Shown here piece after piece: positions 29,374-62,000 of a stretch of DNA of 62,000 nucleotides. The notes beneath the pieces were generated by a model. It had not been told where the DNA came from. It made no database searches and worked only from the letters and a program-made list of their open reading frames with translations. The DNA comes from Rhynchopus sp. YZ270_cl-10 (Eukaryota). The stretch is taken from the NCBI GenBank assembly GCA_964035575.1, contig OZ037833.1, positions 2,914,001 through 2,976,000 of the forward strand. The letters are read 5' to 3'. A program made the translations under genes and the position numbers. Position 1 is the stretch's first letter. Each line of letters begins with the position of its first letter.

Positions 29374-29429
29374 GTTAAGGCACAGGTCTTATGAGCCTGG
29401 GATCGCGGGTTCAAACCCCGCCGGGAGCA
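29374..29429 (+). pseudogene. 5'-truncated tRNA-Ile(TAT)
   Basis: Identical to the 3' part of 52678-52750. Confidence 0.9.
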
Positions 29430-29509
29430 AAGCCTTTTTTTGTTCTGTGATTCATGTTCATTCCTCCTGTTCTTTCGATGACTCCTCCAGAAGTTGCAAA
29501 GGAACAGTA

Positions 29510-29591
29510 GCGGACGTATCCAAGTGGTTACGGAGGTGCACTCGAAATGCATTGGGCTCTGCCCGCGCAGGTTCAAATCCTGCCGTCCGCG
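29510..29591 (+). tRNA. tRNA-Ser(CGA)
   Basis: Cloverleaf with long variable arm; loop CT CGA AA. Confidence 0.95.
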
Positions 29592-30397
29592 TTATTGCCT
29601 TTTTGCTGTGCAGGGGGAACCCTGTACATTCCACACATGGTGTTTTTTTTACTGGGGAGTAAGTGATTAGGGTGCGTGTGATGCTCCAATTTGCGATTCT
29701 GACCTCATAATGCATTCAGGAGCATCCAAACATCCCATTTTCCCGTTAGTTTCCCATTTTTGACGATCTGGCTATTGCAGAATAGAGGTGAAAATGACAT
29801 TTTGCTGCCGTCGTACGGTCAGATCCGAGCATCAGACAATGTCTAGAATTTTAGCTATGCAACAAACACCTGTATATTGGGTAAAATGGCTAATAATCAT
29901 ATCTAAATGGCTCATATATGCTCGAAAATGCAAAAATCTTGGGAATGTGGGGTTTTTGGGCATTTTTGAGTCAATTGCGGGGTCGTACGATCAGATTAGA
30001 GCATCACACAATGTCTCAAATTTTACAGGTGCAACAAACACCTGTATTTTGGTGTAACATGCATATAACCATATCTAAATACCTCAAATTTGCACGAAAA
30101 TGAAGAAATCTTGGGTATATAGGGTTTTTGGGCCAATCTGAGTCAATTGCGGGGTCGCACGGTCAATTCCGAGTATCAGGCCCTCTCTACAACTTAGCCG
30201 GTGCTCAAACATAGGGGTTACAGGCAAATAAACCTGTACACAGGCATATGACCTCTGTACGAACCTTCTTTTCACTCGAAAATGCAATTTTCTTGGGTAT
30301 ATGGGGTATTTGAGCACATCTGAGTCAATTGCGGGGTCGTACGCTCAGATCCGAGCATCACACACTGTCTAACTGAGAAATATTTTGAAAAAAGTCG

Positions 30398-31978
30398 ATT
30401 TTTTGGTGAAAATATTTTTCACAGAAAATCGAATTTTACTATTAAGATTGGCTTTGGGCATGACCCAGTAAGGTTACTATGGGCCCCATGGGACATATAC
30501 ACCCGAATACCAGGCCGTATTTTCAAAATGTTGATAATCCCAGTATATGGTATGGCCCTGTGGTACGAAATTTTTGGCCGAAAAAATCGACCAAAAAATC
30601 GTCATTTTTGGGGGTCACGGTGACAAAAAGTTGCATTTTTTCACGAAAAATGGTCGGAATGTGACTTGAATGGGCTCTAATGGGTATATTATGCACATAA
30701 CATACCTAAATTATGTCGATATTTCACCGGCGGAGCCGAAAAAATCGATTTTCAGGGTGTGCAAAACTGTAAAAATGACGAAAATCGGAAAAATGACGAT
30801 TTTTTGGTCAAAATATTTTTCACAGAAAATCGAATTTTACTATTAAGATTGGCTTTGGGCATGACCCAGTAAGGTTACTATGGGCCCCATGGGACATATA
30901 CACCCGAATACCAGGCCGTATTTTCAAAATGTTGATAATCCCAGTATATGGTATGGCCCTGTGGTACGAAATTTTTGGCCGAAAAAATCGACCAAAAAAT
31001 CGTCATTTTTGGGGGTCACGGTGACAAAAAGTTGCATTTTTTCACGAAAAATGGTCGGAATGTGACTTGAATGGGCTCTAATGGGTATATTATGCACATA
31101 ACATACCTAAATTATGTCGATATTTCACCGGCGGAGCCGAAAAAATCGATTTTCAGGGTGTGCAAAACTGTAAAAATGACGAAAATCGGAAAAATGACGA
31201 TTTTTTGGTCAAAATATTTTTCACAGAAAATCGAATTTTACTATTAAGATTGGCTTTGGGCATGACCCAGTAAGGTTACTATGGGCCCCATGGGACATAT
31301 ACACCCGAATACCAGGCCGTATTTTCAAAAAGTTGATAATCCCAGTATATGGTATGGCCCTGTGGTACGAAATTTTTGGCCGAAAAAATCGACCAAAAAA
31401 TCGTCATTTTTGGGGGTCACGGTGACAAAAAGTTGCATTTTTTCACGAAAAATGGTCGGAATGTGACTTGAATGGGCTCTAATGGGTATATTATGCACAT
31501 AACATACCTAAATTATGTCGATATTTCACCGGCGGAGCCGAAAAAATCGATTTTCAGGGTGTGCAAAACTGTAAAAATGACGAAAATCGGAAAAATGACG
31601 ATTTTTTGGTGAAAATATTTTTCACAGAAAATCGAATTTTACTATTAAGATTGGCTTTGGGCATGACCCAGTAAGGTTACTATGGGCCCCATGGGACATA
31701 TACACCCGAATACCAGGCCGTATTTTCAAAAAGTTGATAATCCCAGTATATGGTATGGCCCTGTGGTACGAAATTTTTGGCCGAAAAAATCGACCAAAAA
31801 ATCGTCATTTTTGGGGGTCACGGTGACAAAAAGTTGCATTTTTTCACGAAAAATGGTCGGAATGTGACTTGAATGGGCTCTAATGGGTATATTATGCACA
31901 TAACATACCTAAATTATGTCGATATTTCACCGGCGGAGCCGAAAAAATCGATTTTCAGGGTGTGCAAAACTGTAAAAA
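30398..31978. repeat. 401-bp tandem repeat, about 4 copies
   Basis: Near-identical spurious ORFs at 30479, 30880, 31281, 31682. Confidence 0.95.
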
Positions 31979-34900
31979 TCACCAAAATCCCAAAAATCAC
32001 GATTTTTTTTCAAAAATATTTTTTTCAAAAAAATCGATTTTAAAATATTGGTTTGGCTTGTGCGGGGACCTGAATCTGGGGCAACATACCCTGTGGGACA
32101 TACTGGGCCCGATGCAAGGCCGATTTTTCAAAAATATGGTTGCCCCGGTAGACGGTATGGCCCTGCAGGTCAGTGCATCGGGCCAAAAATCATGAAAAAA
32201 TCATGATTTTGGGGTCTGGCACCCCATGGGCACATATATCTGGGGGTGTGAAATATGCATGGAATCGACCGATTGGGGGTGTTATAGGTCCTGGGGGCCC
32301 ACATGGGCCATATTTCACGCTATTGGGTCACGGGAAAGTGATTTTGACATTTTTTCATCGATTTTAGCTGTGAGAACCCTTCAAAAACACTGATTTTGGG
32401 GTGTTTCTGAGACGGTACGCTATACCCAGGGTCATATTAGGTATTAGTCCGGTCGACTTTTTGAAAAAACGACCCCGCAATGGACTCAGGGGTGCCAGAT
32501 AGTGTATATGCACCAGAATGGATTCACGGGAAAAGTCAAAATTGGGTGTCAGATACATGCTGCCATAAGTGACGAATTTCAAAAGTTGAGATTTTTCGAA
32601 AATCAGGGTTCAGTACACGCTGTACCCAATCCTGGGGGCCAAAATTTTCAACTTTTTGAAAAAACGGGCGGTATATGGCCCTAAAGTGTCAAAATGAGTT
32701 AATTGCGACCTCGGACGGCCTCCGGAGATGAGTAGAAGTTTATTTACTGAAAAAAAAAGTCAAAACACAGGCGAAATCCCACCTTCCACAGGTACAGTCA
32801 AAACTATTATCCAGATCTCATGTTTTTTCAAAAAATTTTAAATTGTTTTTATGACTAACACCTCCGAAATTTTTCCTGATAAGATGGAATATGGTCCTGT
32901 CGTAGTATGCAGTGTGTTTGCAGGCAAAAATTTGCATTTTCTCGCCCCAGACATTTTTTTATACATAAAAGTGCATAAAGGGACCCCTGACCCCAAAATC
33001 CGGGTTCCAGCTTTTTGAAGGGGTCACCCTACAGGCCACCTCAAAAAGTTGGCCCGTAGGGCCAACTTTTTGAAAAAACGGGGTTGCGATGTGTCCTGGG
33101 GGCCCGAAGGGCCCCCAGGACACATCGCTGGGAAAAAAATATTAGGTTTTTGGGGGTCTATATAGGGTTGCTGTGGGGGTCACATGGCCGAAAAATGGCC
33201 ATTTTTGGCCTATTTTTGGCCATTTTTTTAAGGTAAAAAATCCACTTTTTTTTTGTACATCCCCTTGCCCCCGGTAAAATTTACCAAACATATGGCCCTG
33301 TTGGACATACTGGGCCCATGAGTCGGTCGCTGGATCACCAAACTAGTTGCCCTATTTGCTAAAATCATGTTTTCAGGGTCAAAAATAGGGTGTTTTTTAG
33401 GGTCAAAAATAGGGTGTTTTTCAGGGGTATGTTAACCACGTATGTGTCTTAGGGACCAAATTTTCCAGGAATGTGAACCAATCGGGTCGCAATGGGTCCA
33501 GGGGGCCCGGAGGGCCCCCATGCAGGGAAAATTTGCAACAATCCTGGGCAATGCTGGGGGCCGATAGGGTGTGCCTATACACGTGTTTTTACGTGTTTTT
33601 GGGCACTTTTCAGGATTTTCGAAAATTTTTGCAACACCAAAATCAAAAATTTCGGTCTAGGAGGCCCATATCTGGAAAAAATCGATATTCCAATGGCCTC
33701 ATTGGGACATATTGGGCCCAGGACCCTATTTTCAGGTCCCAGGAAAAGCCAAAACAATAAAAAAAATAGCTCAGGCGACCCCCAAAAATAGGCGAAAAAC
33801 AGCCATTTTTAGGGTGTTTTTTAGGGGTATTTTTACACACACAAATTGTTTACCATAGCACACCCCCAGGCTGCCTCAAAATTTTATCTTTATTTGATTT
33901 TTCCAACCCACATAGGGGTATTGGAGGCACAACTTTCACCAAGCCTGGGGAATTCGGCACTGCACACACACAACTGAAAAAGGCAAAAATCACCTGTTTT
34001 TCAAGGTGTCGCAGGGTAAATGTTGTTCCTTAAAAACCAAATTTTTTCTAAAAAATCGGCCCTGCGGGTGAAAAAACGACACTATGGGGGGTATTCCAGG
34101 GTGTGGGGGCCCCAAAAATCCGGTTTAAGACCACGAGAGGGTCCGAATACACACCTGAGAAGGTCCCGGGGAGTAAAAAAATGGCCATTTTTGGGGGGTC
34201 AAAATCTCACTTTTTGGGGGGATGTTTGTATACCCAGTACCGACCCACTAGCTGGGATGCCCAACTTTTCGCGAATATGGGGGCCCGTAGGGCCCCCGGG
34301 GCCCAGGGGGCCCAAAATATCGTGTTGCAGATGCCAGGAGAACATGTTTCAATATTTTGGATACATTTTTCCATAGGGTCATTTTCAAAAGCACTGATTT
34401 TAGGGGTATTGAGCGAGGTACCCATACCCATGGGTTATCCTATATATTAGTTTTCACTCGGATGTGAAAAAACGATGTCGCAATGGATTCAGGGGGCCCA
34501 AATAGGGTATATGGCCCAGGAAATTTTCAAAAAGTTGACCCAACCAGGTATACAGGCATACAAGCCGGTAGGTCAACAGATAGGGTGTTTTCCGCACCCA
34601 AAATATGGGGTCATGACCATGTGGGTCAGACCTGAATTGATAAATGTTTCGCACAGGTTTTCGCGAATACCCCCTCTATTCCGAATGCGCTACAAGAGTT
34701 TTAAATTTTTGGCTATTTAGATTCACTTTTAAAAACAAAATGGGTCTCCAGAACACACATGAGGTTCACATGTACCTCTACAGAAACCTTGGTTTTGGTC
34801 GGATTTTGAGGCCAATTTTTGGGTTCCCACCAATTTCCTAGGGTATACTGGGATATTGCCCGTGTGTCCAAAAGTGATTTTTGGGGCCTTAGGACCCCGG

Positions 34901-35641
34901 AGAATCCATTTAACGGTCGTTTTTGCACCGGAAAGACCTATCTAGTACCCAAAAATCGAATTTTCATATTTTTGAAAAAGTGACCAAAAATCGACTTTTT
35001 TTGGTAACATTGTATGGCATAAATTATTCTACATAATGTGTGATGCTTGAATAAAAACTTACGACCCCATAATGTACTCGGAACTCACCCATGTAATTGT
35101 TGAGAAAAAAAAACTTTCCGAAAAAATGAAATTTCAACCCGAATATGCACATTTGGGTCATTTTACGGCTATGTAGGTCATTTTGTATGTGTTTTTCGAT
35201 TATATAGGTGATTAGGATATGTGTGATGCTCAGATTAAATCGTAAGACCCCGCAATTGACTCAAATGTGCCCAAAAACCCTATATACCCAAGATTATTAA
35301 CTTTTCCAGCATATTGGACATCCTTAGGTATGGTTATAAGCCATGATACGGCTATTGCTGGAAAAATAGCCATAAATTGTGGTTGGTATTGATTTCAGAA
35401 ATTATGTGATGCTTAGATCATGCCATAGACGCTTTTAATGGATTCATATGAGCTCATACTACCCATATACCCCTTCAGAAGCCCCTTTTGACTCTTATGA
35501 ATATCCTTATATAGGCTTCCACTTGTGCAGAACCTTCTCAGTGTACAAGATGTTAGGTACAAAAAAACCATCATATTTTTTACACTACTGGCATGCTTCC
35601 CAGGACACGTCTGTACTCAGAACGTTGTAGAGAAAAAAGGC

Positions 35642-35753
35642 AACCAACGATTTCTAAAGCTACAGTTTCTGTACTTCATTGGTATGGAAGCATGAAGATT
35701 ACTCTTCTCACACAACTTTGTCAAAACATGGCCAGTTTCGAAAGAGACTGGCC
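35642..35753 (+). ncRNA. SL RNA: Spliced-leader RNA gene 1
   Basis: AACCAACGATTTCTAAAGCTACAGTTTCTGTACTTCATTG|GTATG, Sm-like AACTTTG, 3' hairpin, T-tract. Confidence 0.95.
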
Positions 35754-36075
35754 TTTTTTACGTTAGCATGATCGTCTTGTGCACAAGAAGCAAACCCAAA
35801 AACACACACGATTCACACATGACATAACACACAAGTGCTTACTGCACCCCATTTTTATATCGCCTGCAAAACCATATTTGTGACACTTGTTCCCCTTCAG
35901 AAGCCACTGTTGACTCTGTCGAATATCCTTCTGTAGGATCACACTTAAGGATATTTTTATGTAGAACCTTCACAGTGACCAAGATGTCAGGTACGAAAAA
36001 GCAACCGTATTATAGACATTGGCAGAAGGCTTCCCAGAACAAGTGGGTACCTAGAACATTGTAGAGAAAAAGGGC

Positions 36076-36187
36076 AACCAACGATTTCTAAAGCTACAGT
36101 TTCTGTACTTCATTGGTATGGAAGCATGAAGATTATATTCTTCACACAACTTTGTCAAAACATGGCCAGTTTCGAAAGAGACTGGCC
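36076..36187 (+). ncRNA. SL RNA: Spliced-leader RNA gene 2
   Basis: Same exon and intron structure. Confidence 0.95.
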
Positions 36188-36494
36188 TTTTTTACGTTAA
36201 CATCACCTTGTGCAAACCCAAAAAACACACATGATTCCCATGTTCTTCGAATATTTTGGTGATTAGGATATGTGTAATGCTCAGATTAAATTGTACGACC
36301 ACGCAATTGACTCAAATGAGCCCAAATATCCCGTATTCCCAAGATTTTTGGACTTTCGAGCACATTGGGCATCCTTAGGTATGTTTATAAGCCACTCTAC
36401 GGCTATGTTAGAAAAAAAACCCACCATAATAATGATACATATGGCATGATTCCCAGAACATGTTGGCACTTAGAACATTGTAGAGAAAAAGGGC

Positions 36495-36606
36495 AACCAA
36501 CGATTTCTAAAGCTACAGTTTCTGTACTTCATTGGTATGGAAGCATGAAGATTATTCTTCTCACACAACTTTGTCAAAACATGGCCAGTTTCGAAAGAGA
36601 CTGGCC
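36495..36606 (+). ncRNA. SL RNA: Spliced-leader RNA gene 3
   Basis: Same exon and intron structure. Confidence 0.95.
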
Positions 36607-36690
36607 TTTTTTACGTTAACACGATCGTCTTGTGCACAAGAAGCAAAAAAACCCACACAACAACAGCAGAAGTTTAGAACCACATTCAGA

Positions 36691-36726
36691 CCCTGACCCA
36701 ACTCCAACAAGGGGCCCCTGTCTTGT
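36691..36726 (+). promoter_or_regulatory. Class-A upstream element at -59 of U6 (CCCTGACCCA..CCAACAAG....CCCTGTCTTGT)
   Basis: Recurs at 37280, 37991, 40445 and 54916(-) at about -59/-60 from RNA starts. Confidence 0.8.
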
Positions 36727-36749
36727 CAACCACCTTGTGCATATATACT

Positions 36750-36854
36750 GGACCCCAGAAATGGGACATCCGTTAAAATTGGATCGATACAGAGAAGATT
36801 AGCATGGTCCCTGTGCAAGGATGACACGCATTAATCGAGAAAGTATCAACTTTT
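36750..36854 (+). ncRNA. U6: U6 snRNA
   Basis: ACAGAGAAGATTAGCATGG...CAAGGATGACACGCA core, terminal T-run. Confidence 0.97.
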
Positions 36855-37073
36855 TTTTTGTCCCCCGGATCACACGTATTTTTTACACTGGTGTCTTCTT
36901 CATGCTTCCCAGACCAACACATATGTGCAGACATACCCATCACCCACAGGTGGCAAGTGGCAGGCTGCAGTAACCCATTGAAATATTGGTTTCAAAAAAC
37001 GACCATATGGTTTATGCTACTGGCATGCTTCCCTGAGCACATACATGTCGAAAGCTGTGTAGAGAAAAAGAGC

Positions 37074-37185
37074 AACCAACGATTTCTAAAGCTACAGTTT
37101 CTGTACTTCATTGGTATGGAAGCATGAAGATTACTCTTCTCACACAACTTTGTCAAAACATGGCCGGTTTCGAAAGAGACTGGCC
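37074..37185 (+). ncRNA. SL RNA: Spliced-leader RNA gene 4
   Basis: Same exon and intron structure. Confidence 0.95.
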
Positions 37186-37340
37186 TTTTTTACGTTAGCA
37201 TGATTGTCTTTGTGTGTCTTTGTGCAAAGCAAAAAAAAAACACACACAAGAAGTGAGGATCTTCAAAACCACGTTTTTGACCTGACCCACCTCCAACTAG
37301 ACAACCCTGTCTTGTATTCCGACAATATGGTATCTATTGA

Positions 37341-37655
37341 GCCGGGATGTGTTGGCTGCATCCTGAAACCCCTAGCTTCTGGGGGGGCAAGCTTCTCCAG
37401 AACTGGGCACTCTTTGAGGTGGACCAAAGGCACCTTCAACTTCTGTGTTGATGTGTTGTCCGTGTTAGTCTACTGTCCTGTTTGCGGCCTTGGTGTAAAC
37501 CAGGGCAACAATCAGAGTGAAATGGGGTGAACCGGGCCAGGCTGGTCTCACAGAGCAGCTCATAACTCCTGCAGTGGACAGTTCAAGGATCGCAGCACAG
37601 AGCAGAGTGAGGGTGTTTCCAACTCAATGGCTTGAACTGGAGAAGCGTTTCTTTT
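37341..37655 (+). ncRNA. 7SL: 7SL (SRP) RNA
   Basis: GCCGGG start, helix 6 with GTAA loop, helix 8 GCCAGG..AGCAG, closing GCTTCTCCAG/CTGGAGAAGC, T6 terminator. Confidence 0.88.
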
Positions 37656-37815
37656 TTACATTTTTCCATGTGAACATTGTTTCCACATCACCATACACAT
37701 GTGTTGTTGATACACCCCACCACGTTGCCCAGACCATTCCTACCCACATTATTCACCACAAGTGGCATGTTTACCAGTACATGTTGGTGCTTAGAGCAAT
37801 GTTAAGAAAAAGGGC

Positions 37816-37928
37816 AACCAACGATTTCTAAAGCTACAGTTTCTGTACTTCATTGGTATGGAAGCATGAAGATTATATTCTTCTCACACAACTTTGTCAA
37901 ACATGGCCAGCCTCGAAAGAGACTGGCC
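37816..37928 (+). ncRNA. SL RNA: Spliced-leader RNA gene 5 (variant intron)
   Basis: Identical exon, slightly diverged intron. Confidence 0.93.
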
Positions 37929-38049
37929 TTTTTTACGTCACCATGAGAAAAAACATTCACACATATGATGCATGTACAAAGTGTGTGTCACCCTGACCCA
38001 CCTCCAACAAGACAACCCTGTCTTGTTTTCCCATACTCTCCCTATGTTT

Positions 38050-38374
38050 GGGTGCTAAGTTAGTGTGCTACTTCGAAACCAAACAACTCGTTCAGCAACA
38101 GCTAAAACTTGAAAAGACCTTTCTATTTAAGAAAATTCTTTACAATTTTTATGATGCGGTCCTGCTGTTGGGCCTGATATGGCCCAAGGCGGAACTACTT
38201 TCATATGATGTAAATCCCGTACGTTCGTACAGAATATTACCCATGATGATTATTCTTACATTAGCGTGTAACACTAATTCTGACTGCGTTCTATTTCACA
38301 CTTCAAATATTAGAACTGGATGTGGGGCTGCCAGTTTACTGGTGGTCCCGATCCAGCACACAACGCAAGCACCC
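38050..38374 (+). ncRNA. Unidentified ~325-nt structured RNA ('RNA X'), copy 1
   Basis: Class-A element at -59, terminal helix GGGTGCT/AGCACCC, T6, covarying stems with the paralog at 54528-54857. Confidence 0.75.
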
Positions 38375-38490
38375 TTTTTTATATTTTCCCACCCAGCACC
38401 CCCCCTGTGTCTGTGTTGTTGCCTAAGCATCGCCTTTTACAGGCTTCCTTGCAGGGAGTGTTCGGTCAAGTGATAGTGATGAAGAAGGAC

Positions 38491-38556
38491 AGGGGCGAGT
38501 TTTCTCGTGAAATGCTTTGAAGCCTCTGACATTGAGAGGCTCGCTCCGACCTCTGT
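38491..38556 (+). ncRNA. Unidentified ~65-nt structured small RNA
   Basis: CTTCC element at -47, GGGGCGAG/CTCGCTCC closing stem, TGTTTTT end like neighbouring snRNAs. Confidence 0.5.
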
Positions 38557-38636
38557 TTTTAATAACCCACATCACAGTGGTAACCACTGTGTATGTATGG
38601 TATGTATGGTATGTTTGTTTTTGTTTTGTTAAAAAA

Positions 38637-38826
38637 GAGGGTATGCCACTCCTGGATGTTGTGCAGCTCCAGGGCAACATGTGTGAACGGACCAGGTTGC
38701 CCTGGCGACCCGTCACCCCAATGAGAAATTGCGTTAATATCATCAGTGCACAAGGCACTGTATCAGATATTAAGCTGATAAGAACAGATAATACACTTGA
38801 TCTTAGCCAAAAGGCCGAGAAGGTAT
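38637..38826 (-). ncRNA. U2: U2 snRNA
   Basis: ATACCTTCTCGGCCTTTTGGCTAAGATCAAGTGTATTATCTGTTCTTATCAG on the minus strand; ~190 nt. Confidence 0.97.
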
Positions 38827-38859
38827 GACTTCTTTTTAGTCCATACCGAATTCGACACC

Positions 38860-38877
38860 CATGTACAGGGAAGCATG
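38860..38877 (-). promoter_or_regulatory. Class-B upstream element (ATGCTTCCCTG) at -47 of U2
   Basis: Same motif at -46/-47 of the SL genes, U3, U4, U5 and about -50 of U1. Confidence 0.75.
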
Positions 38878-38979
38878 ATTATGATCAATATTACTAGGAA
38901 ACAACAAGGCAAGCAGATTACACACCCATGTCACAGGGAAGTAAGTGAAGGTGATGATCAATCTTATTAGTAAAAACAA

Positions 38980-39121
38980 GGCCGCCGAAGCAGCTACACA
39001 AATTGCCAATGTGGCAACGCCGAAGCGGCCCATGGCGGGAATTGGGTAGTTTTCAACCAGCAATCTCTCCACAGCGTCCCTATTTGGTCATTGCTTATGG
39101 AATTATCCCGAGCGCAAGAAT
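38980..39121 (-). ncRNA. U4: U4 snRNA
   Basis: 5' ATTCTTGCGC complementary to U6 stem II, k-turn stem, TGCTGGTTGAAAACT, Sm site AATTTGTG. Confidence 0.92.
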
Positions 39122-39281
39122 ACCTCCTTTTCTCCCAGTCGTGTCACAAAGCTATGTCCACAGGGAAGTGTGTTGGGGTGGTAACATATAGACACCACGT
39201 AAAGTTAACACACCAAAACTACCACCGCCAATGTGCCTCCCTATAGACATCTGTGCAGCCGATAGGTGGAACAAACAAGGG

Positions 39282-39493
39282 CAAGACTGTACTCTACACA
39301 GGATCTGTTTTTGAGTGCATTCGTGTTGAAGATTGTTTTCTTCGGCACAAGACCAAAGCTGGATGATGACATAGGTTGGGCATGTGCAGCATGAGCACTT
39401 GCGATGATTGTCACATACTTCTTGTATTGTTTTGTCTCTCCCCTGTATGGCGCAGGGAAGAGTACCAGGCACAGCCCTTCCACTTACAGCTTG
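39282..39493 (+). ncRNA. U3: U3 snoRNA
   Basis: AAGACTGTACTCT..GGATC (GAC/A'/A boxes), GATGA boxes, terminal AAGCTG/CAGCTT stem; box D atypical. Confidence 0.8.
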
Positions 39494-50739: not shown

Positions 50740-50756
50740 AATCCCAGGTGGAGGCA
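50684..50756 (+). tRNA. tRNA-Phe(GAA)
   Basis: Loop CT GAA GA. Confidence 0.95.
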
Positions 50757-51958: not shown

Positions 51959-52030
51959 TTCCCCGGCCGGGAATTGAACCCGGGTCTTCCGCGTGACAGG
52001 CGGAAATACTGACCTCTATACTACCGAGGA
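51959..52030 (-). tRNA. tRNA-Asp(GTC), copy 2
   Basis: Identical to 45717-45788. Confidence 0.95.
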
Positions 52031-52118
52031 TACAATGAAGCCTGTTTTTAAAAAGAATGCGTCCAGAGAAAGTCTTCAATCGCACCGGATCTGAAAAATA
52101 AAAAACAAAGAAAAGAAT

Positions 52119-52191
52119 TACCCCATGTGGGACTCGAACCCACAACCTTTGGATTAGAAGTCCAACGCGCTATCCATTGCGCCAATGGGGC
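52119..52191 (-). tRNA. tRNA-Arg(TCT)
   Basis: Loop CT TCT AA. Confidence 0.95.
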
Positions 52192-52283
52192 TTGTTTCAT
52201 ATTCTTTTCTCGTTTTAAGGAAGTGTCCCTTCATGGTCAACAACACCTGTAAAAAATTGTGAAGGAAATTCAAAAATGAAAAG

Positions 52284-52356
52284 TACAACTAGCTGGGATT
52301 GAACCAGCGATCTTCCGCGTGTAAGGCGGACGTCCTAACCACTAGACGATAGCTGC
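52284..52356 (-). tRNA. tRNA-Val(TAC)
   Basis: Loop CT TAC AC. Confidence 0.95.
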
Positions 52357-52457
52357 CCAAACTTAGTGAGATGTTGGCAAGGGTCTGACCAACTTTTTTT
52401 TGGTGTTCAAAAAATTTTTTTCAAGTCAAAAAAATGGGTTCACTGAAAAAGGTTTTC

Positions 52458-52530
52458 TAGCAGAGATAGGTTTCGATCCTATGACCTGTGGGTTATGAGC
52501 CCACCGCGCTGACCACTGCGCCACTCTGCT
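52458..52530 (-). tRNA. Initiator tRNA-Met(CAT)
   Basis: A1:U72, three G-C pairs in the anticodon stem, A54/A60. Confidence 0.95.
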
Positions 52531-52580
52531 TCTAATTACTTCCAACGATGTTTTCTACATGCCCAGCTTAAAAAAGGCTA

Positions 52581-52651
52581 TGCGACCGCCGGGAATCGAA
52601 CCCGGGTCGAACCCTTGGGAGGGGTCCATCATGCCACTAGACCACGGTCGC
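52581..52651 (-). tRNA. tRNA-Gly(CCC)
   Basis: Loop CT CCC AA. Confidence 0.95.
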
Positions 52652-52677
52652 CTTATCAAGGGATAAAAGGGCTCGAC

Positions 52678-52750
52678 GCTCTCGTGGCCTAGTGGTTAAG
52701 GCACAGGTCTTATGAGCCTGGGATCGCGGGTTCAAACCCCGCCGGGAGCA
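52678..52750 (+). tRNA. tRNA-Ile(TAT), intronless
   Basis: Loop CT TAT GA. Confidence 0.93.
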
Positions 52751-52830
52751 AAGCCTTTTTTTGTTCAGTGAATCATGTTCATTCCTCCTGCTCGTTTCAT
52801 GACTCCTCCAGAAGTTGCAAAGGAACAGTA

Positions 52831-52912
52831 GCGGACGTATCCAAGTGGTTACGGAGGTGCACTCGAAATGCATTGGGCTCTGCCCGCGCAGGTTCAAATC
52901 CTGCCGTCCGCG
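52831..52912 (+). tRNA. tRNA-Ser(CGA)
   Basis: Identical to 29510-29591. Confidence 0.95.
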
Positions 52913-53642
52913 TTATTGTCTTTTTGCTGTGTAGGGGGAACCCTGTACATTCCATACATCTCAAATAGCCCAAATAAATTTTCACTGGGAGTAAGTGATT
53001 AGGGCTGATTAGGGATGTGTGATGCTCCAATTTGCGGTTACGACTTCATAATGGATTCAGGAGCATCCAAACATCCCATTTTCCCGTTAGTTTCCCATTT
53101 TTGACGATCTGGCTATTGCAGAATAGAGGTGAAAATGACATTTTGCTGGGTCATTTTCGCGAACTCGATTAGGGCACTTCTGATGCTCTAATTTGCGGTT
53201 ACAACCTCATAATGAATTCAGGAGCATCCGAATGACCCATTATCCCAACGTTTTCACATTTTGGACGATCTTGCTATTGCGGAGTATCCGGTGGAAAATC
53301 GGAAAATTCCATGTGTACCGTGTTTCACTGGGAGTAAGTGATTAGGACATGTGTGATGCTCCAATTTGCGGTTCCGACCTCATGATGGCTTCAGGAGCAT
53401 CCAAATAACCCGTTTTCCCAACGTTTTCGCATTTTTGACCAGTTGGGCTGTTGCGGAATAGCAGGTAAAAACGGTCATTTTGGCCACCTCAATTAGGGCA
53501 CTTCTGATGCTCCAATCAAATCGTCCGACCTCATAATGGGTTCGGGAGCACCCAAATAACACATATTCCCAACGTTTTCGCGTTTTTGATCCTGTGTGAG
53601 CAATCCAGAACAACTTTCTGCTTCAGTAAAAAAAAGTAAAAA

Positions 53643-53761
53643 GGATTCAAGCACCCGGACTTCCCAGCTGGTCACCCACGCCAGTACTATCCAGGCCTGC
53701 TGGTGCTTAACTTCTCAAATCAGGCGGGATGAGGTGTATTCACCAGAGTATGGCCGAATCC
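53643..53761 (-). rRNA. 5S: 5S rRNA
   Basis: Reverse complement of the plus-strand copies. Confidence 0.97.
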
Positions 53762-53845
53762 AATACTGAGTCATGATGGACAACATGTGAACAGGTTGTT
53801 TGTGACCTAACAACGAACCAGAAATAGGACAGCGAACAAAAAACA

Positions 53846-53918
53846 AGGCACTAGAGGGGATCGAACCCTCGACCTCTCGCTTACTGGGCGAGCGCTCTAA
53901 CCACTGAGCTATAGCGCC
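53846..53918 (-). tRNA. tRNA-Thr(AGT), C33
   Basis: Loop CC AGT AA. Confidence 0.95.
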
Positions 53919-54039
53919 ATGCTTTCTCTCCATCTTCTTTTCTTTGAAGGGGGTCTTTTGAAATGTACAGAGCACGCATCAAAAATTTCCTTCATACCTC
54001 CGCGATGGTGAAAAAATTTTTAACGAAGGAGCCTAGTAA

Positions 54040-54121
54040 GGCGAGGTGGCCGAGTGGTCTAAGGCGCTACGTTCAGGTCGTAGTCTCTTCGGGGGCGTGA
54101 GTTCAAACCTCACCCTCGTCA
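54040..54121 (+). tRNA. tRNA-Leu(CAG)
   Basis: Loop TT CAG GT. Confidence 0.95.
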
Positions 54122-54199
54122 CTTTTTCTTCGTTGTGTGATCACTTAAAAGCCTATTTCGGCCCAAAGCTTGTTGTTTTAAAGAAGCATCATAATTGTG

Positions 54200-54271
54200 G
54201 GGCTCTTAGCTCAGTGGAAGAGCGCCCGTTCCGCATACGGGAGGCCGAGAGTTCGAACCTCTCAGGGTCCA
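54200..54271 (+). tRNA. tRNA-Ala(CGC), C33
   Basis: G3:U70; loop TC CGC AT. Confidence 0.95.
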
Positions 54272-54348
54272 CAGTTTTTTTTTCCCCTGTTTTGTTTCTC
54301 CTGTGTAAATTGGTTCTCAGAGCTTTCACACCTTGCTCCCTAAAATGT

Positions 54349-54420
54349 GGCTGTTTAGCTCAGTGGTAGAGCACATCATCCGTAATGATGGGGTCGTGGG
54401 TTCAATCCCCACAGCGGCCT
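54349..54420 (+). tRNA. tRNA-Thr(CGT), C33
   Basis: Loop TC CGT AA. Confidence 0.95.
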
Positions 54421-54527
54421 AGGTTTTTTTCAGAGCTCCCCAAGAATTTCCAACCTAACTTGGGGTTTGTGGGTTTGCGGTCACTGGTGCACACATGGCC
54501 TGTGGACGGGCAGGGACAAAAAAAATT

Positions 54528-54857
54528 GGGTGCTTGCGTTGTGTGCTGGATCGGGACCACCAGTAAACTGGCAATCCCACATCCAGTTCTAATATTTGAA
54601 GTGTGAAATAGAACGCAATCGGAAGATTAGTTTACACGAATGTAAGAATAATATCGTCATGGTAATATTCTGTACAGATTGTACGGGATTTACTATCATA
54701 TGAGAGTAGTCCGTCGCAGGCCACATCGGGCCCGCAACATGACCGGTCTTCACACAAAATTGTAAAAGAATTTTCCTTGGAAAAAATGTCTTTTTCAAGT
54801 TTTTGTTGTTGCTGAACGAGTTGTTTGGTTTCGAAGTAGCACACTAACTTAGCACCC
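54528..54857 (-). ncRNA. Unidentified ~330-nt structured RNA ('RNA X'), copy 2
   Basis: Diverged paralog of 38050-38374; class-A element at 54881-54916, again at -59. Confidence 0.75.
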
Positions 54858-54967
54858 AAACATGCAGCAAACATCGGAATACAAGACAGGGTCGTCTTGT
54901 TGGAGGTGGGTCAGGGTCTGGACATCCTCAAATGTGCACACCTAATACAACAGAAGAAAAGGAAAAA

Positions 54968-55086
54968 GGATTCAAGCACCCGGACTTCCCAGCTGGTCAC
55001 CCACGCCAGTACTATCCAGGCCTGCTGGTGCTTAACTTCTCAAATCAGGCGGGATGAGGTGTATTCACCAGAGTATGGCCGAATCC
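54968..55086 (-). rRNA. 5S: 5S rRNA
   Basis: Reverse complement of the plus-strand copies. Confidence 0.97.
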
Positions 55087-55093
55087 AATAATA

Positions 55094-55232
55094 GGTCTGG
55101 ATAGAAAAGCTGGGAAGACTTATTACCAGTCCGTTTTTACCTGAGAAGTTAGACACCTCCAAGCCTGGATAGTACTGGCGCGGGTGACCAACTGGATAAA
55201 TACACCGAAAAATAGATCTAAATTGTCAGACC
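55094..55232 (+). ncRNA. 5S-derived variant RNA or pseudogene retaining the internal control region
   Basis: TGAGAAGTTAGACACC..GCCTGGATAGTACTGGCGCGGGTGACCA at 55142-55190; new terminal stem GGTCTG/CAGACC. Confidence 0.5.
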
Positions 55233-56915
55233 GGTTCTTAGCTGTGCGCATCCATAAAAAACTAAAAAAATACTTGCGTCAGAAAATCCTAGTGTGTTGT
55301 ACCGTGGTCCGATATTCTTTCGGTCCCGGGTTCAACACCTGAGACAGATAATATATTTTGACTTTTTCAGATTTTTCTCATTTTTTTGTCTCCTCACTCT
55401 TTCTGAGAATCTTCAAAATTGTCAAAAGTGAGAAATTTTTGGGAAAATGGCATATTTAGGGGCTCCTGAATCCATTATGAGGTCAGATGAATCAATCTGA
55501 GCATCACACATATCCTAATAGACAAAATGTCCGTTTATCAAAATACCTGAAAATGCCTCTTTATCCTATCTAAGGATGTCAGAAACCCTTAAAAGTGCAA
55601 AAATCTTGGGAATATAGGGTTTTTGGGCCATTCTGAATCCATTGCGGGGTCGGACGATTTGATTGGAGCATCAGAAGTATCCTAATCGGTAAAATGTCGC
55701 AAAAATATGGGCAAAATGCCTTTATACCCTATCTAAGCAATTAGAATGTGCTCTAAAACGCAAAAATCTTGGGAATATGGGGTTTTTGGGCACATCTGAG
55801 TTCATTGCGGGGTCGTACGATCAGATCTGAGCATCACATAATGTCTAGAATTTTACAGGTGCAACAAACACCTGTATTTTGGTGTAACATGCATATAACC
55901 ATATCTGAATACCTTAAATTTGCACGAAAATGCAAAAATCTTGGGAATATGGGTTTTTTGGGCACATCTGAGTCAATTGCGGGGTCGCACGATCAGATCC
56001 GAGCATCACACAATACCTAGAATTTCAACTATGCAATAAACATGTCTATTTTGGGTAAAATGGCTAATAACCACATGTAAGTAGCTTAAAAATGCTCTAA
56101 AATGCAATAATCTTGGGAATATGGGGTTTTTGGGCACATTTGAGTTCATTGCGGGGTCGCACGATCAGATCCGAGTATCACACAATGTCTAGAATTTCAA
56201 AAAAGCAACAATCACATGTATTTTGGTGTAAAATGCATATAACCATATCTGAATGTCTCAAATACGCATGAAAATGAAGTAATCTTGGGTATATAGGGTT
56301 TTTGGGCACATCTGAGTCAATTGCGGGGTCGTACGGTCAGATCCGAGCATCAGACAATGTCTAGAATTTTAGCTATGCAACAAACACCTGTATATTGGGT
56401 AAAATGGCTAATAATCATATCTAAATGGCTCATATATGCTCGAAAATGCAAAAATCTTGGGAATGTGGGGTTTTTGGGCATTTTTGAGTCAATTGCGGGG
56501 TCGTACGATCAGATTAGAGCATCACACAATGTCTCAAATTTTACAGGTGCAACAAACACCTGTATTTTGGTGTAACATGCAAACAACCATATCTAAATAC
56601 CTCAAATTTGCACGAAAATGAAGAAATCTTGGGTATATAGGGTTTTTGGGCCAATCTGAGTCAATTGCGGGGTCGCACGGTCAATTCCGAGTATCAGGCC
56701 CTCTCTACAACTTAGCCGGTGCTCAAACATAGGGGTTACAGGCAAATATACCTGTACACAGGCATATGACCTCTGTACGTACCTTCTTTTCACTCGAAAA
56801 TGCAATTTTCTTGGGTATATGGGGTATTTGAGCACATCTGAGTCAATTGCGGGGTCGTACGCTCAGATCCGAGCATCACACACTGTCTAACTGAGAAATA
56901 TTTTGAAAAAAGTCG

Positions 56916-57696
56916 ATTTTTTGGTGAAAATATTTTTCACAGAAAATCGAATTTTACTATTAAGATTGGCTTTCGGCATGACCCAGTAAGGTTACTATGG
57001 GCCCCATGGGACATATACACCCGAATACCAGGCCGTATTTTCAAAAAGTTGATAATCCCAGTATATGGTATGGCCCTGTGGTACGAAATTTTTGGCCGAA
57101 AAAATCGACCAAAAAATCGTCATTTTTGGGGGTCACGGTGACAAAAAGTTGCATTTTTTCACGAAAAATGGTCGGAATGTGACTTGAATGGGCTCTAATG
57201 GGTATATTATGCACATAACATACCTAAATTATGTCGATATTTCACCGGCGGAGCCGAAAAAATCGATTTTCAGGGTGTGCAAAACTGTAAAAATGACGAA
57301 AATCGGAAAAATGACGATTTTTTGGTGAAAATATTTTTCACAGAAAATCGAATTTTACTATTAAGATTGGCTTTGGGCATGACCCAGTAAGGTTACTATG
57401 GGCCCCATGGGACATATACACCCGAATACCAGGCCGTATTTTCAAAAAGTTGATAATCCCAGTATATGGTATGGCCCTGTGGTACGAAATTTTTGGCCGA
57501 AAAAATCGACCAAAAAATCGTCATTTTTGGGGGTCACGGTGACAAAAAGTTGCATTTTTTCACGAAAAATGGTCGGAATGTGACTTGAATGGGCTCTAAT
57601 GGGTATATTATGCACATAACATACCTAAATTATGTCGATATTTCACCGGCGGAGCCGAAAAAATCGATTTTCAGGGTGTGCAAAACTGTAAAAATC
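56916..57696. repeat. 401-bp tandem repeat, about 2 copies (next unit)
   Basis: Same unit as 30398-31978. Confidence 0.95.
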
Positions 57697-60600
57697 ACCA
57701 AAATCCCAAAAATCACGATTTTTTTTGAAAAATATTTTTTTCAAAAAAATCGATTTTAAAATATTGGTTTGGCTTGTGCGGGGACCTGAATCTGGGGCAA
57801 CATACCCTGTGGGACATACTGGGCCCTATGCAAGGCCGAATTTTCAAAAATATGGTTGCCCCGGTAGACGGTATGGCCCTGCAGGTCAGTGCATCGGGCC
57901 AAAAATCATGAAAAAATCATGATTTTGGGGTCTGGCACCCCATGGGCACATATATCTGGGGGTGTGAAATATGCATGGAATCGACCGATTGGGGGTGTTA
58001 TAGGTCCTGGGGGCCCACATGGGCCATATTTCACGCTATTGGGTCACGGGAAAGTGATTTTGACATTTTTTCATCGATTTTAGCTGTGAGAACCCTTCAA
58101 AAACACTGATTTTGGGGTGTTTCTGAGACGGTACGCTATACCCAGGGTCATATTAGGTATTAGTCCGGTCGACTTTTTGAAAAAACGACCCCGCAATGGA
58201 CTCAGGGGTGCCAGATAGTGTATATGCACCAGAATGGATTCACGGGAAAAGTCAAAATTGGGTGTCAGATACATGCTGCCATAAGTGACGAATTTCAAAA
58301 GTTGAGATTTTTCGAAAATCAGGGTTCAGTACACGCTGTACCCAATCCTGGGGGCCAAAATTTTCAACTTTTTGAAAAAACGGGCGGTATATGGCCCTAA
58401 ATTGTCAAAATGAGTTAATTGCGACCTCGGACGGCCTCCGGAGATGAGTAGAAGTTTATTTACTGAAAAAAAAAGTCAAAACACAGGCAAAATCCCACCT
58501 TCCACAGGTACAGTCAAAACTTTTATCCAGATCTCATGTTTTTTCAAAAAATTTTAAATTGTTTTTATGACTAACACCTCCGAAATTTTTCCTGATAAGA
58601 TGGAATATGGTCCTGTCGTAGTATGCAGTGTGTTTGCAGGCAAAAATTTGCATTTTCTCGCCCCAGACATTTTTTTATACATAAAAGTGCATAAAGGGAC
58701 CCCTGACCCCAAAATCCGGGTTCCAGCTTTTTGAAGGGGTCACCCTACAGGCCACCTCAAAAAGTTGGCCCGTAGGGCCAACTTTTTGAAAAAACGGGGT
58801 TGCGATGTGTCCTGGGGGCCCGAAGGGCCCCCAGGACACATCGCTGGGAAAAAAATATTAGGTTTTTTGGGGTCTATATAGGGTTGCTGTGGGGGTCACA
58901 TGGCCGAAAAATGGCCATTTTTGGCCTATTTTTGGCCATTTTTTTAAGGTAAAAAATCCACTTTTTTTTTGTACATCCCCTTGCCCCCGGTAAAATTTAC
59001 CAAACATATGGCCCTGTTGGACATACTGGGCCCATGAGTCGGTCGCTGGATCACCAAACTAGTTGCCCTATTTGCTAAAATCATGTTTTCAGGGTCAAAA
59101 ATAGGGTGTTTTTTAGGGTCAAAAATAGGGTGTTTTTCAGGGGTATGTTAACCACGTATGTGTCTTAGGGACCAAATTTTCCAGGAATGTGAACCAATCG
59201 GGTCGCAATGGGTCCAGGGGGCCCGGAGGGCCCCCATGCAGGGAAAATTTGCAATAATCCTGGGCAATGCTGGGGGCCGATAGGGTGTGCCTATACACGT
59301 GTTTTTACGTGTTTTTGGGCACTTTTCAGGATTTTCGAAAATTTTTGCAACACCAAAATCAAAAATTTCGGTCTAGGAGGCCCATATCTGGAAAAAATCG
59401 ATATTCCAATGGCCTCATTGGGACATATTGGGCCCAGGACCCTATTTTCAGGTCCCAGGAAAAGCCAAAACAATAAAAAAAATAGCTCAGGCGACCCCCA
59501 AAAATAGGCGAAAAACAGCCATTTTTAGGGTGTTTTTTAGGGGTATTTTTACACACACAAATTGTTTACCATAGCACACCCCCAGGCTGCCTCAAAATTT
59601 TATCTTTATTTGATTTTTCCAACCCACATAGGGGTATTGGAGGCACAACTTTCACCAAGCCTGGGGAATTCGGCACTGCACACACACAACTGAAAAAGGC
59701 AAAAATCACCTGTTTTTCAAGGTGTCGCAGGGTAAATGTTGTTCCTTAAAAACCAAATTTTTTCTAAAAAATCGGCCCTGCGGGTGAAAAAACGACACTA
59801 TGGGGGGTATTCCAGGGTGTGGGGGCCCCAAAAATCCGGTTTAAGACCACGAGAGGGTCCGAATACACACCTGAGAAGGTCCCGGGGAGTAAAAAAATGG
59901 CCATTTTTGGGGGGTCAAAATCTCACTTTTTGGGGGGATGTTTGTATACCCAGTACCGACCCACTAGCTGGGATGCCCAACTTTTCGCGAATATGGGGGC
60001 CCGTAGGGCCCCCGGGGCCCAGGGGGCCCAAAATATCGTGTTGCAGATGCCAGGAGAACATGTTTCAATATTTTGGATACATTTTTCCATAAGGTCATTT
60101 TCAAAAGCACTGATTTTAGGGGTATTGAGCGAGGTACCCATACCCATGGGTTATCCTATATATTAGTTTTCACTCGGATGTGAAAAAACGATGTCGCAAT
60201 GGATTCAGGGGGCCCAAATAGGGTATATGGCCCAGGAAATTTTCAAAAAGTTGACCCAACCAGGTATACAGGCATACAAGCCGGTAGGTCAACAGATAGG
60301 GTGTTTTCCGCACCCAAAATATGGGGTCATGACCATGTGGGTCAGACCTGAATTGATAAATGTTTCGCACAGGTTTTCGCGAATACCCCCTCTATTCCGA
60401 ATGCGCTACAAGAGTTTTAAATTTTTGGCTATTTAGATTCACTTTTAAAAACAAAATGGGTCTCCAGAACACACATGAGGTTCACATGTACCTCTACAGA
60501 AACCTTGGTTTTGGTCGGATTTTGAGGCCAATTTTTGGGTTCCCACCAATTTCCTAGGGTATACTGGGATATTGCCCGTGTGTCCAAAAGTGATTTTTGG

Positions 60601-61357
60601 GGCCTTAGGACCCCGGAGAATCCATTTAACGGTCGTTTTTGCACCGGAAAGACCTATCTAGTACCCAAAAATCGAATTTTCATATTTTTGAAAAAGTGAC
60701 CAAAAATCGACTTTTTTTGGTAACATTGTATGGCATAAATTATTCTACATAATGTGTGATGCTTGAATAAAAACTTACGACCCCATAATGTACTCGGAAC
60801 TCACCCATGTAATTGTTGAGAAAAAAAAACTTTCCGAAAAAATGAAATTTCAACCCGAATATGCACATTTGGGTCATTTTACGGCTATGTAGGTCATTTT
60901 GTATGTGTTTTTCGATTATATAGGTGATTAGGATATGTGTGATGCTCAGATTAAATCGTAAGACCCCGCAATTGACTCAAATGTGCCCAAAAACCCTATA
61001 TACCCAAGATTATTAACTTTTCCAGCATATTGGACATCCTTAGGTATGGTTATAAGCCATGATACGGCTATTGCTGGAAAAATAGCCATAAATTGTGGTT
61101 GGTATTGATTTCAGAAATTATGTGATGCTTAGATCATGCCATAGACGCTTTTAATGGATTCATATGAGCTCATACTACCCATATACCCCTTCAGAAGCCC
61201 CTTTTGACTCTTATGAATATCCTTATATAGGCTTCCACTTGTGCAGAACCTTCTCAGTGTACAAGATGTTAGGTACAAAAAAACCATCATATTTTTTACA
61301 CTACTGGCATGCTTCCCAGGACACGTCTGTACTCAGAACGTTGTAGAGAAAAAAGGC

Positions 61358-61469
61358 AACCAACGATTTCTAAAGCTACAGTTTCTGTACTTCATTGGTA
61401 TGGAAGCATGAAGATTACTCTTCTCACACAACTTTGTCAAAACATGGCCAGTTTCGAAAGAGACTGGCC
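61358..61469 (+). ncRNA. SL RNA: Spliced-leader RNA gene (next unit, copy 1)
   Basis: Identical to 35642-35753. Confidence 0.95.
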
Positions 61470-61791
61470 TTTTTTACGTTAGCATGATCGTCTTGTGCAC
61501 AAGAAGCAAACCCAAAAACACACACGATTCACACATGACATAACACACAAGTGCTTACTGCACCCCATTTTTATATCGCCTGCAAAACCATATTTGTGAC
61601 ACTTGTTCCCCTTCAGAAGCCACTGTTGACTCTGTCGAATATCCTTCTGTAGGATCACACTTAAGGATATTTTTATGTAGAACCTTCACAGTGACCAAGA
61701 TGTCAGGTACGAAAAAGCAACCGTATTATAGACATTGGCAGAAGGCTTCCCAGAACAAGTGGGTACCTAGAACATTGTAGAGAAAAAGGGC

Positions 61792-61903
61792 AACCAACGA
61801 TTTCTAAAGCTACAGTTTCTGTACTTCATTGGTATGGAAGCATGAAGATTATATTCTTCACACAACTTTGTCAAAACATGGCCAGTTTCGAAAGAGACTG
61901 GCC
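61792..61903 (+). ncRNA. SL RNA: Spliced-leader RNA gene (next unit, copy 2)
   Basis: Identical to 36076-36187. Confidence 0.95.
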
Positions 61904-62000
61904 TTTTTTACGTTAACATCACCTTGTGCAAACCCAAAAAACACACATGATTCCCATGTTCTTCGAATATTTTGGTGATTAGGATATGTGTAATGCTCAG

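Follow-up and report, generated by a model that had tools for sequence, protein, structure and literature searches.

Organization of the tandem repeat

The window analyzed here, a 62,000-bp stretch of contig OZ037833.1 (positions 2,914,001 to 2,976,000; assembly GCA_964035575.1) of Rhynchopus sp. YZ270_cl-10, contains a tandem repeat of small-RNA genes, represented by one complete unit, the beginning of the next and the decayed tail of the previous one. The complete unit encodes the spliced leader (SL) RNA, the small nuclear RNAs (snRNAs) U1, U2, U4, U5 and U6, the small nucleolar RNA (snoRNA) U3, the 7SL RNA of the signal recognition particle (SRP), 5S rRNA and a nearly complete set of tRNAs, as well as two copies of a structured RNA of ~325 nt, called RNA X below; the total per unit is 68 small-RNA genes, one of them broken. 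A first-pass annotation of this DNA, made from the sequence alone, had listed five SL genes, U1 to U6, 7SL, four 5S genes and 48 tRNA genes, and this list is borne out by Rfam, ARAGORN and the SL sequence, although both copies of RNA X had been overlooked. Its count of 48 tRNA genes for 45 species and all 20 amino acids is likewise right, but left unsaid that tRNA-Leu(TAG) is interrupted. The near-identical restart ~26 kb on, the deleted tail of a previous unit, the lack of an intact protein gene and the provision of nearly one gene per anticodon, all of which it had also described, agree with the results given in this section and in that on the tRNA genes.

The head-to-tail period is 25,716 bp, or 26,518 bp with two additional copies of a 401-bp spacer subrepeat. 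Positions 32043-36284 and 57759-62000 are identical at 4234 of 4242 bases (8 differences, 99.8%), and 29810-30386 and 56328-56904 at 573 of 577 (4 differences). The remnant at 29374-29807, on the other hand, matches 52695-53148 at an identity of only 95.6%, plus 24 gap columns; it begins within tRNA-Ile, and at its joint with position 29810 the equivalent of 53149-56327 has been lost. Judged by this divergence, the tail appears to be older than the intact neighbouring units. No protein gene was found in the unit, since none of 45 open reading frames (ORFs) tested (82-158 aa), which were picked from 107 listed (at least 75 aa) in 28200-56900, reached the Pfam cut-off. Scans of viral contigs gave no match.

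Depth of the unit

Among the matches listed, there are eight runs, from five studies, in which half or more of the words sampled from 35500-45400 are present; four runs (X1, X2, X4 and X7), from four studies, were compared at the array edge by their contig depths, and seven further runs with a partial share (0.05-0.37) were left out of use. The unit was deeper than the flank in all four runs, by 2.4-10 times. In X1, flank contigs had depths of 8.8-9.6 and unit contigs of 54.6-61.5; in X2, the corresponding values were 2.8-3.0 and 6.5-7.1; and in X4 and X7, which are deep but noisy, the summed non-satellite bins of the unit amounted to ~3-10 times the median flank bin. The first-pass annotation had named read depth as the check on a duplication in the assembly, and as the unit is deeper than its flank in each of these runs, such a duplication is very unlikely. 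Loose ends further showed that the majority version in the runs continues past 29374 and 29807 exactly like the intact unit.

The contigs of the Ser tRNAs in X1 were equally deep (54.6 for Ser-CGA, and 104.1 together for two others), and loose ends tie Ser contigs to Ser-AGA (45537; X1 and X2) and Ser-TGA (49327; X2), far inside the unit, which indicates that the tRNA genes share in the amplification. Flank contigs of X4 reached depths of 2,584-5,479 and a tail-specific contig 5,349, and in X7 they exceeded 1,300; therefore, several array ends may each carry a copy of the edge. One junction contig of X4 had a depth of 210 and showed no difference, with 30 letters on the unit side, one under the bridging rule; if this contig marks a single copy, the number of units would be tens to about a hundred.

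tRNA genes

ARAGORN identified 47 intact tRNA genes within 41237-54420 and a 48th, Leu-TAG, that is interrupted. The standard set comprises 46 tRNA species, and 45 of these are covered (44 anticodons, with initiator (iMet) and elongator (eMet) methionine tRNAs counted apart), serving all 20 amino acids. Only Asn-GTT, Asp-GTC and Lys-CTT are doubled, and random sampling of 48 genes would yield 45 or more of the 46 types with p=1.7e-14. The iMet gene was recognized by A1:U72 and its T-loop, which we take to be hallmarks of the initiator. Genes for Leu-TAA and Sec tRNAs were absent from the unit in the ARAGORN census. As Diplonema papillatum also lacks tRNA-Leu(UAA) according to the available part of PMC10161547, the repertoire may be almost complete within the unit. 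The broken Leu-TAG implies that an intact gene exists in other copies or elsewhere, or that CUA is read otherwise.

The gene at 45376 was considered as a Ser tRNA and rejected, being Tyr-GTA with an 11-nt intron; the long-intron calls that ARAGORN made at a relaxed score were dismissed as noise, except for Leu-TAG and Tyr. A C occupies the near-invariant U33 in 11 of the 47 intact tRNAs (three Ala, both Lys-CTT, two Thr, two Arg, Gly-GCC and eMet) and in 3 of 10 tRNAs of the related contig L008 (see below), Ala-AGC being affected in both; either C33-to-U editing or a relaxed U-turn would account for it. An element family with 26-bp minisatellites and inverted repeats occupies 42080-43064, 47125-47288 and 50871-50980, one copy splitting tRNA-Leu(TAG), and the tRNA spacer at 44381-44740 bears inverted and direct repeats of the GCACAGAATGG family, possibly a small transposon remnant.

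SL, snRNA, U3, 7SL and 5S genes

U2, U4, U5, U6, 7SL and the four 5S genes score above the Rfam gathering threshold. U1 falls just short of it (68 bits versus a cut-off of 69.5, E 5e-15), and the match of U3 is weak (35 versus 80 bits, E 6e-6); the 5' part of the latter is 92-97% identical to U3-like genes of two related contigs, L001 and L002. The SL RNAs received no Rfam call, and were assigned from sequence instead: in each of the five copies, a GTATG donor follows the 40-nt exon, and a terminal hairpin precedes the T run, with ~112 nt to the T run. The sequence of the exon is presumably a mark of diplonemids. The SL RNA of D. papillatum has a 39+75-nt layout (PMC10161547, available part). 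From the sequence, these two features are the grounds on which the unit is attributed to a diplonemid. The coordinates of all features are compiled in Table 1.

Table 1. Features of the repeat and its edge in the 62,000-bp window
Feature	Position	Strand	Evidence or remark
Linker of AAACCCGC-like units at array edge, 20 bp	29354..29373	+	same motif as (CCGCAAAC)x31.6 at 27909-28161
Diverged, deleted tail of previous unit: 5'-truncated tRNA-Ile(TAT), intact Ser(CGA)	29374..29807	+	95.6% identity
Complete repeat unit	29810..56327	.	26,518 bp; 25,716 bp with two fewer 401-bp subrepeats
172-bp spacer satellite	29810..30371	.	also 55424-56889; inverted relatives 49847-50431, 53016-53589
401-bp spacer subrepeat	30387..32042	.	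4.1 copies here vs 2.1 in next unit
SL RNA gene 1	35642..35755	+	sequence
SL RNA gene 2	36076..36189	+	sequence
SL RNA gene 3	36495..36608	+	sequence
U6 snRNA	36751..36856	+	Rfam; class-B upstream element
SL RNA gene 4	37074..37187	+	sequence
7SL (SRP) RNA	37341..37648	+	Rfam; class-B upstream element
SL RNA gene 5	37816..37930	+	sequence
RNA X copy 1, 325 nt, bulged 5'/3' helix, T-run end	38050..38374	+	fold z -6.5; class-B element
U2 snRNA	38636..38826	-	Rfam
U4 snRNA	38982..39121	-	Rfam
U3 snoRNA	39283..39492	+	Rfam below family cut-off; likeness to L001/L002 genes
U5 snRNA	39644..39754	+	Rfam
U1 snRNA	39832..39990	+	Rfam 68 vs 69.5 bits
5S rRNA 1	40280..40399	+	Rfam
Orphan class-B element, no recognizable gene behind	40444..40480	+	alignment
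5S rRNA 2	41035..41154	+	Rfam
tRNAs Cys-GCA, Ala-AGC, Gln-CTG, Leu-AAG, Asn-GTT	41237..41982	+	ARAGORN
tRNA-Leu(TAG), split at anticodon	42042..43120	+	985-bp insertion, terminal inverted repeats, 11-bp target duplication
tRNAs Val-CAC, Glu-CTC, Pro-CGG, Arg-CCT(-), Lys-CTT	43184..44051	.	ARAGORN
tRNAs Thr-TGT(-), Trp-CCA(-), eMet(-), Tyr-GTA (11-nt intron), Ser-AGA, Asp-GTC, Arg-TCG, Gly-TCC(-), Arg-ACG(-), His-GTG(-), Gly-GCC	44869..46774	.	ARAGORN
tRNAs Arg-CCG, Glu-TTC(-), Pro-AGG(-), Asn-GTT, Ser-GCT(-), Lys-CTT(-), Gln-TTG, Ser-TGA(-), Lys-TTT(-), Ala-TGC	47771..49745	.	ARAGORN
tRNAs Ile-AAT, Phe-GAA	50531..50757	+	ARAGORN
tRNAs Val-AAC(-), Pro-TGG, Leu-CAA(-), Asp-GTC(-), Arg-TCT(-), Val-TAC(-), iMet(-), Gly-CCC(-), Ile-TAT, Ser-CGA	51400..52912	.	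ARAGORN
5S rRNA 3	53642..53761	-	Rfam
tRNAs Thr-AGT(-), Leu-CAG, Ala-CGC, Thr-CGT	53846..54420	.	ARAGORN
RNA X copy 2	54527..54857	-	fold z -5.9; class-B element; 92% identical to copy 1
5S rRNA 4	54967..55086	-	Rfam; decayed 5S piece next at 55142-55195
Next unit, beginning only: spacer and two SL genes (61358, 61792)	56328..62000	.	identity 99.3-99.8%

Related contigs

A search with the SL pattern returned 19 stretches on four contigs (L002, L005, L007 and L008), filed in two bacterial genome bins, and L001 was the sole metagenome match; judged by the SL exon only, all five contigs appear diplonemid-like. L002 consists of 2.3 copies of a tandem 8,587-bp unit (identity 98-99.9%), with six SL genes, U1, U2, U3, U4, U5, U6, 7SL, RNA X, two 5S genes and no tRNA gene, and L005 and L007 are of one family with it. 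L008 (2.6 kb, 58% GC) carries U5, U6, 7SL, SL, 5S (a complete gene and another truncated where the contig ends) and ten ARAGORN tRNAs, each with a different anticodon, and L001 has 7SL-U3-U5-U1-U2-U4-SL within 2.4 kb. Gene order and strand are reshuffled between species, while the core of SL, snRNA, 7SL, RNA X and 5S genes is kept together in L002 and in the window. The tandem kit of L002 and the mixed contig L008 indicate a design common to several lineages, of which the window is the extreme. The presence of L002, L005, L007 and L008 in bacterial bins is contamination, which could inflate the tRNA and 5S counts there.

RNA X, a candidate vault-type RNA

The fold z-scores of the two copies of RNA X were computed against 100 shuffles. 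Most pairs of the terminal helix do not vary, and the outermost pair shows a single compensatory change. A homolog lies between U6 and 5S in L002, L005 and L007, with its ends and internal motifs conserved and its centre variable, and in L002 the motif upstream of it also precedes U6 and 7SL. A profile search recovered it in the window (two copies), L002 (two), L005 and L007, and gave no match in L001 and L008, both of which are short contigs. No Rfam model, Vault included, matched RNA X at E up to 10, and its A and B boxes, as judged by eye against the consensus, are degenerate matches only and are not kept in L002.

Trypanosomatid vault RNA is recognized by a bulged terminal helix and short end motifs (PMC9326685, available part), and the vault proteins MVP and TEP1 are present in diplonemids (PMC12547018, available part). 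RNA X resembles the trypanosomatid RNA in its bulged 5'/3' terminal helix, conserved ends, variable centre and T-run end, and differs from it in length (273-331 nt versus at most ~190 nt), in its degenerate boxes and in the missing Vault match (PMC9326685 and PMC7058938, available parts). A vault-type identity is slightly less likely than not, and RNA X is not classed as a vault RNA here. As the unit gathers housekeeping RNAs, a conserved resident of this kind is a strong candidate for a new core RNA.

Other identities were rejected. A 158-aa ORF within RNA X has no Pfam match, and indels between the copies break its frame. With only three bases between the two 3' helix strands, there is no room for the P4 element that belongs to the architecture of RNase P and MRP RNAs, and no Rfam match to these was found. 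The three copies tested for a telomerase RNA template contained none for TTAGGG, a telomere repeat, or for the local CCGCAAAC repeat, though the telomere repeat of the host may differ. Pairing with the SL exon was also dropped, as the 8-base complement is within chance (~0.26 expected by a hand estimate) and imperfect in L002.

Upstream elements and transcription

Twenty-six of the intact tRNA genes lie on the plus strand and 21 on the minus strand, the median intergenic gap is 100 bp, and all 47 are followed by a T run within 25 bases. Two classes of upstream elements were found for the other genes. The class-B element, ~37 bp long in the alignment, precedes U6, 7SL, both copies of RNA X and one orphan site; the class-A element, ~47 bp upstream of the SL, U1-U5 and U3 genes, has the form CYTCCMWG at -46 to -49 in 7 of 10 genes and variants of it in the other three, the motif having been defined after looking at the sequences. 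The nearest tRNA is more than 1.2 kb from U1, and no tRNA adjoins the snRNA block. In L002, the split into two classes is kept and the motifs are different, as expected if promoters are homogenized within the unit.

The use of both strands, the separate upstream elements and the T-run ends argue against an operon or a single long precursor; each gene would be transcribed on its own. The tRNA and 5S genes would use internal RNA polymerase III (Pol III) promoters, class B would act as a Pol III promoter placed upstream, and class A would be another element of the snRNA type, for which more than one polymerase is conceivable. These elements are the first promoter leads found for such genes in diplonemids.

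Comparison with known small-RNA clusters

A tandem SL RNA-5S rRNA-U2 unit has been described in D. papillatum, where its authors call it exceptional and apparently absent in other diplonemids (PMC10161547); the supplements of that paper other than Additional file 1 contain no mention of a tRNA cluster, snRNA, 7SL or vault. The present unit likewise joins SL, 5S and U2 in one tandem unit and is missing Leu(UAA) tRNA, but holds 68 genes against three, and the L002 unit is also far larger. The detection of snRNA genes in diplonemid genomes has been reported in a survey of 2025 (PMC12621601, available part), which there says nothing of how they are linked. In Entamoeba, 25 distinct tRNA array units of 1-5 tRNAs are known, the largest having six tRNAs and 5S in 2,364 bp (PMC2652664, available part). 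Tandem tRNA genes, in some units with 5S or one snRNA-like gene, are shared with our repeat; whereas in Entamoeba, on the same source, the tRNA set is split among arrays, here 48 tRNA genes and the splicing RNAs lie in one unit. Nearly all tRNA genes of the Entamoeba genome belong to such arrays.

In trypanosomatids, Pol III clusters hold 2-10 tRNAs each and up to 13 genes, at 26-31 loci between protein genes (PMC2695483, available part), and U3 depends on the A and B boxes of an adjacent tRNA (PMC2784804, available part); the snRNA genes of these clusters lie ~100 bp from the divergent tRNA that provides the boxes. As far as these parts go, the clusters resemble the unit in the interspersion of tRNA, snRNA, 7SL and 5S genes on both strands with ~100-bp spacers. 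The unit differs in being tandem and deeper than its flank, and its snRNA block has upstream elements of its own and no adjacent divergent tRNA. Ribosomal DNA (rDNA) arrays share with it the tandem near-identical units, a variable number of spacer subrepeats and a decayed edge copy; instead of a single precursor, however, the unit has dozens of separately terminated genes on both strands.

The largest published units found thus have three genes (Diplonema) and seven (Entamoeba), against 68 here, and the unit is the most inclusive small-RNA repeat found, an extreme version of known mixed small-RNA repeats. The search, confined to the open-access literature with subscription papers outside it, turned up no account of a repeat that combines a nearly full tRNA set with the splicing RNAs. 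In line with the first-pass annotation, the known linkages named here hold a subset each (three genes in D. papillatum, at most six tRNAs and 5S in Entamoeba, up to 13 genes in trypanosomatids). Its view of the unit as rDNA-like and concertedly evolving is supported, as regards a multi-copy, homogenized state, by the 99.8% identity, the variable subrepeats, the degenerate edge copy, the depth in four of four runs and the tandem L002; unlike rDNA, the unit is not one transcript.

Probable maintenance and origin of the array

From the observed gene content, tandem structure, relative depth and upstream elements, we infer that the window probably shows a maintained tandem array of independently transcribed genes, which is homogenized by unequal exchange and has grown from an SL/5S/snRNA repeat by absorbing tRNA genes. 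Uniformity and changes in size would likely be brought about by unequal crossing-over and gene conversion, as in rDNA. It is likely that an ancestral SL/5S/snRNA repeat took up tRNA genes; once captured and amplified, a gene would make its dispersed copies redundant, so that the whole set could be ratcheted into the unit. A change in array length would then scale all linked RNAs together, and under such joint scaling the copy number could not tune tRNA supply to codon use, except through the three doubled genes.

Several points weigh against this interpretation. The window has one complete unit and 5.7 kb of a second copy, with spacer and two SL genes only, and Leu-TAG is broken in the copy seen. 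Contig depth is not copy number and the flank may be repeated; the number of units may be ~5-7 per edge copy, or near a hundred if the junction contig of X4 marks a single copy. Whether tRNA genes were captured or lost is judged from four species without a tree, and dispersed copies elsewhere in the genome would be compatible with the window and the contigs.

The linkage might also have been selected, for a fixed ratio of splicing, SRP and decoding RNAs or for one site of transcription. A set with nearly one gene for each anticodon is far from what chance would give (p=1.7e-14), the SL/snRNA/7SL/X/5S core is together in L002 and the window despite its reshuffled order and strand, and the doubled Lys-CTT is the most-copied tRNA of D. 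papillatum (PMC10161547, available part). Non-adaptive hitch-hiking, however, predicts the same pattern, and the content of the unit varies in relatives (without tRNAs in L002, three genes in D. papillatum). Selection of this kind thus seems rather unlikely, and it would be compatible with a maintained array as an added cause, not a replacement. The fixing of dosage, proposed in the first-pass annotation, is a consequence of linkage; as a purpose it is unproven, relatives having units of other content.

An enlarged single-locus island of the trypanosomatid Pol III type, with a few local duplications, mostly edge debris, and no maintained array, would fit the presence of one full unit only, the decayed tail, the broken Leu-TAG and depth ratios of merely 2.4 in X2 and ~6 in X1, and single loci of trypanosomatids do cluster tRNA, snRNA, 7SL and 5S in up to 13 genes (PMC2695483, available part). 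We consider it improbable in view of the 99.8% identity across non-coding spacer in which the subrepeat number changes and the plainly tandem sister unit in L002; in addition, with depths in the thousands in X4 and X7, the flank itself seems to be multi-copy, which raises the unit count. Still less probable is a unit that exists mainly as an extrachromosomal circle, with the window as its integrated end. Euglena rDNA is on circles (PMC2784804, available part), and the very high contig depths in X4 and X7 and the head-to-tail junction would fit as well, but in the window the array is joined without a break to retroelements and a protein gene, neighbouring copies differ at 8 of 4242 bases and in subrepeat number, and L002 has 2.3 non-identical copies on one contig. 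That the second copy is an assembly artefact of haplotype or read duplication, as its 99.8% identity and the end of the window inside it might suggest, is largely refuted by the depth above the flank in four of four independent runs, the third, diverged tail copy, the differing subrepeat counts and the tandem sister unit in another species.

Beyond the maintained array, there is a fair chance, somewhat below even, that the array is the sole source of tRNAs (bar Sec) and of spliceosomal, SL, SRP and 5S RNAs, in tens to a hundred copies, that it arose stepwise across diplonemids, and that RNA X is the first and longest diplonemid vault-type RNA; the array would then be a second 'rDNA' for the whole small-RNA machinery. 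As a rule, the number of tRNA genes in eukaryotes follows codon use, and genes for small RNAs are dispersed or joined in groups of two or three. Block amplification with one gene per anticodon would remove tuning by copy number. Two questions can be put to the array directly, namely whether tRNA pools depend on the dose of the genes or on the strength of their promoters, and whether small-RNA linkage is an adaptation or the result of hitch-hiking. Its evolution can be traced along the graded series in relatives (three genes, a kit lacking tRNAs, a kit that includes them), and collapsed arrays of this kind would make assemblies undercount tRNA and snRNA genes.

Flank of the array

To the left of the array lie a fragment of an OTU protease, two long reverse-transcriptase ORFs and an esterase/LamG gene. 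The two ORFs, of non-LTR (long terminal repeat) retroelements, extend from stop to stop over 5131-15966 (3611 aa) and 17213-24286 (2357 aa), the second also carrying an OTU-like protease domain. Poly-A runs at 16956 and 25101, each followed by GGTGTGGC, suggest site-specific insertion. The GC-rich gene at 1-2214 has sialate O-acetylesterase, bacterial Ig-like and LamG domains; none of its 44 Leu codons is TTA or CTA, whose tRNAs are missing or broken in the unit, a weak observation from one gene. The CCGCAAAC motif of the linker at the array edge recurs in degenerate reverse copies in the Leu-TAG insertion (42408-42820); it is telomere-like, and is possibly a non-canonical telomere repeat (TTTGCGGG) that marks a healed break. 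The depth of 28237-28385 resembles that of the unit in each of the four runs (56 in X1), and the window has no second copy of this short piece, which is likely another high-copy satellite.

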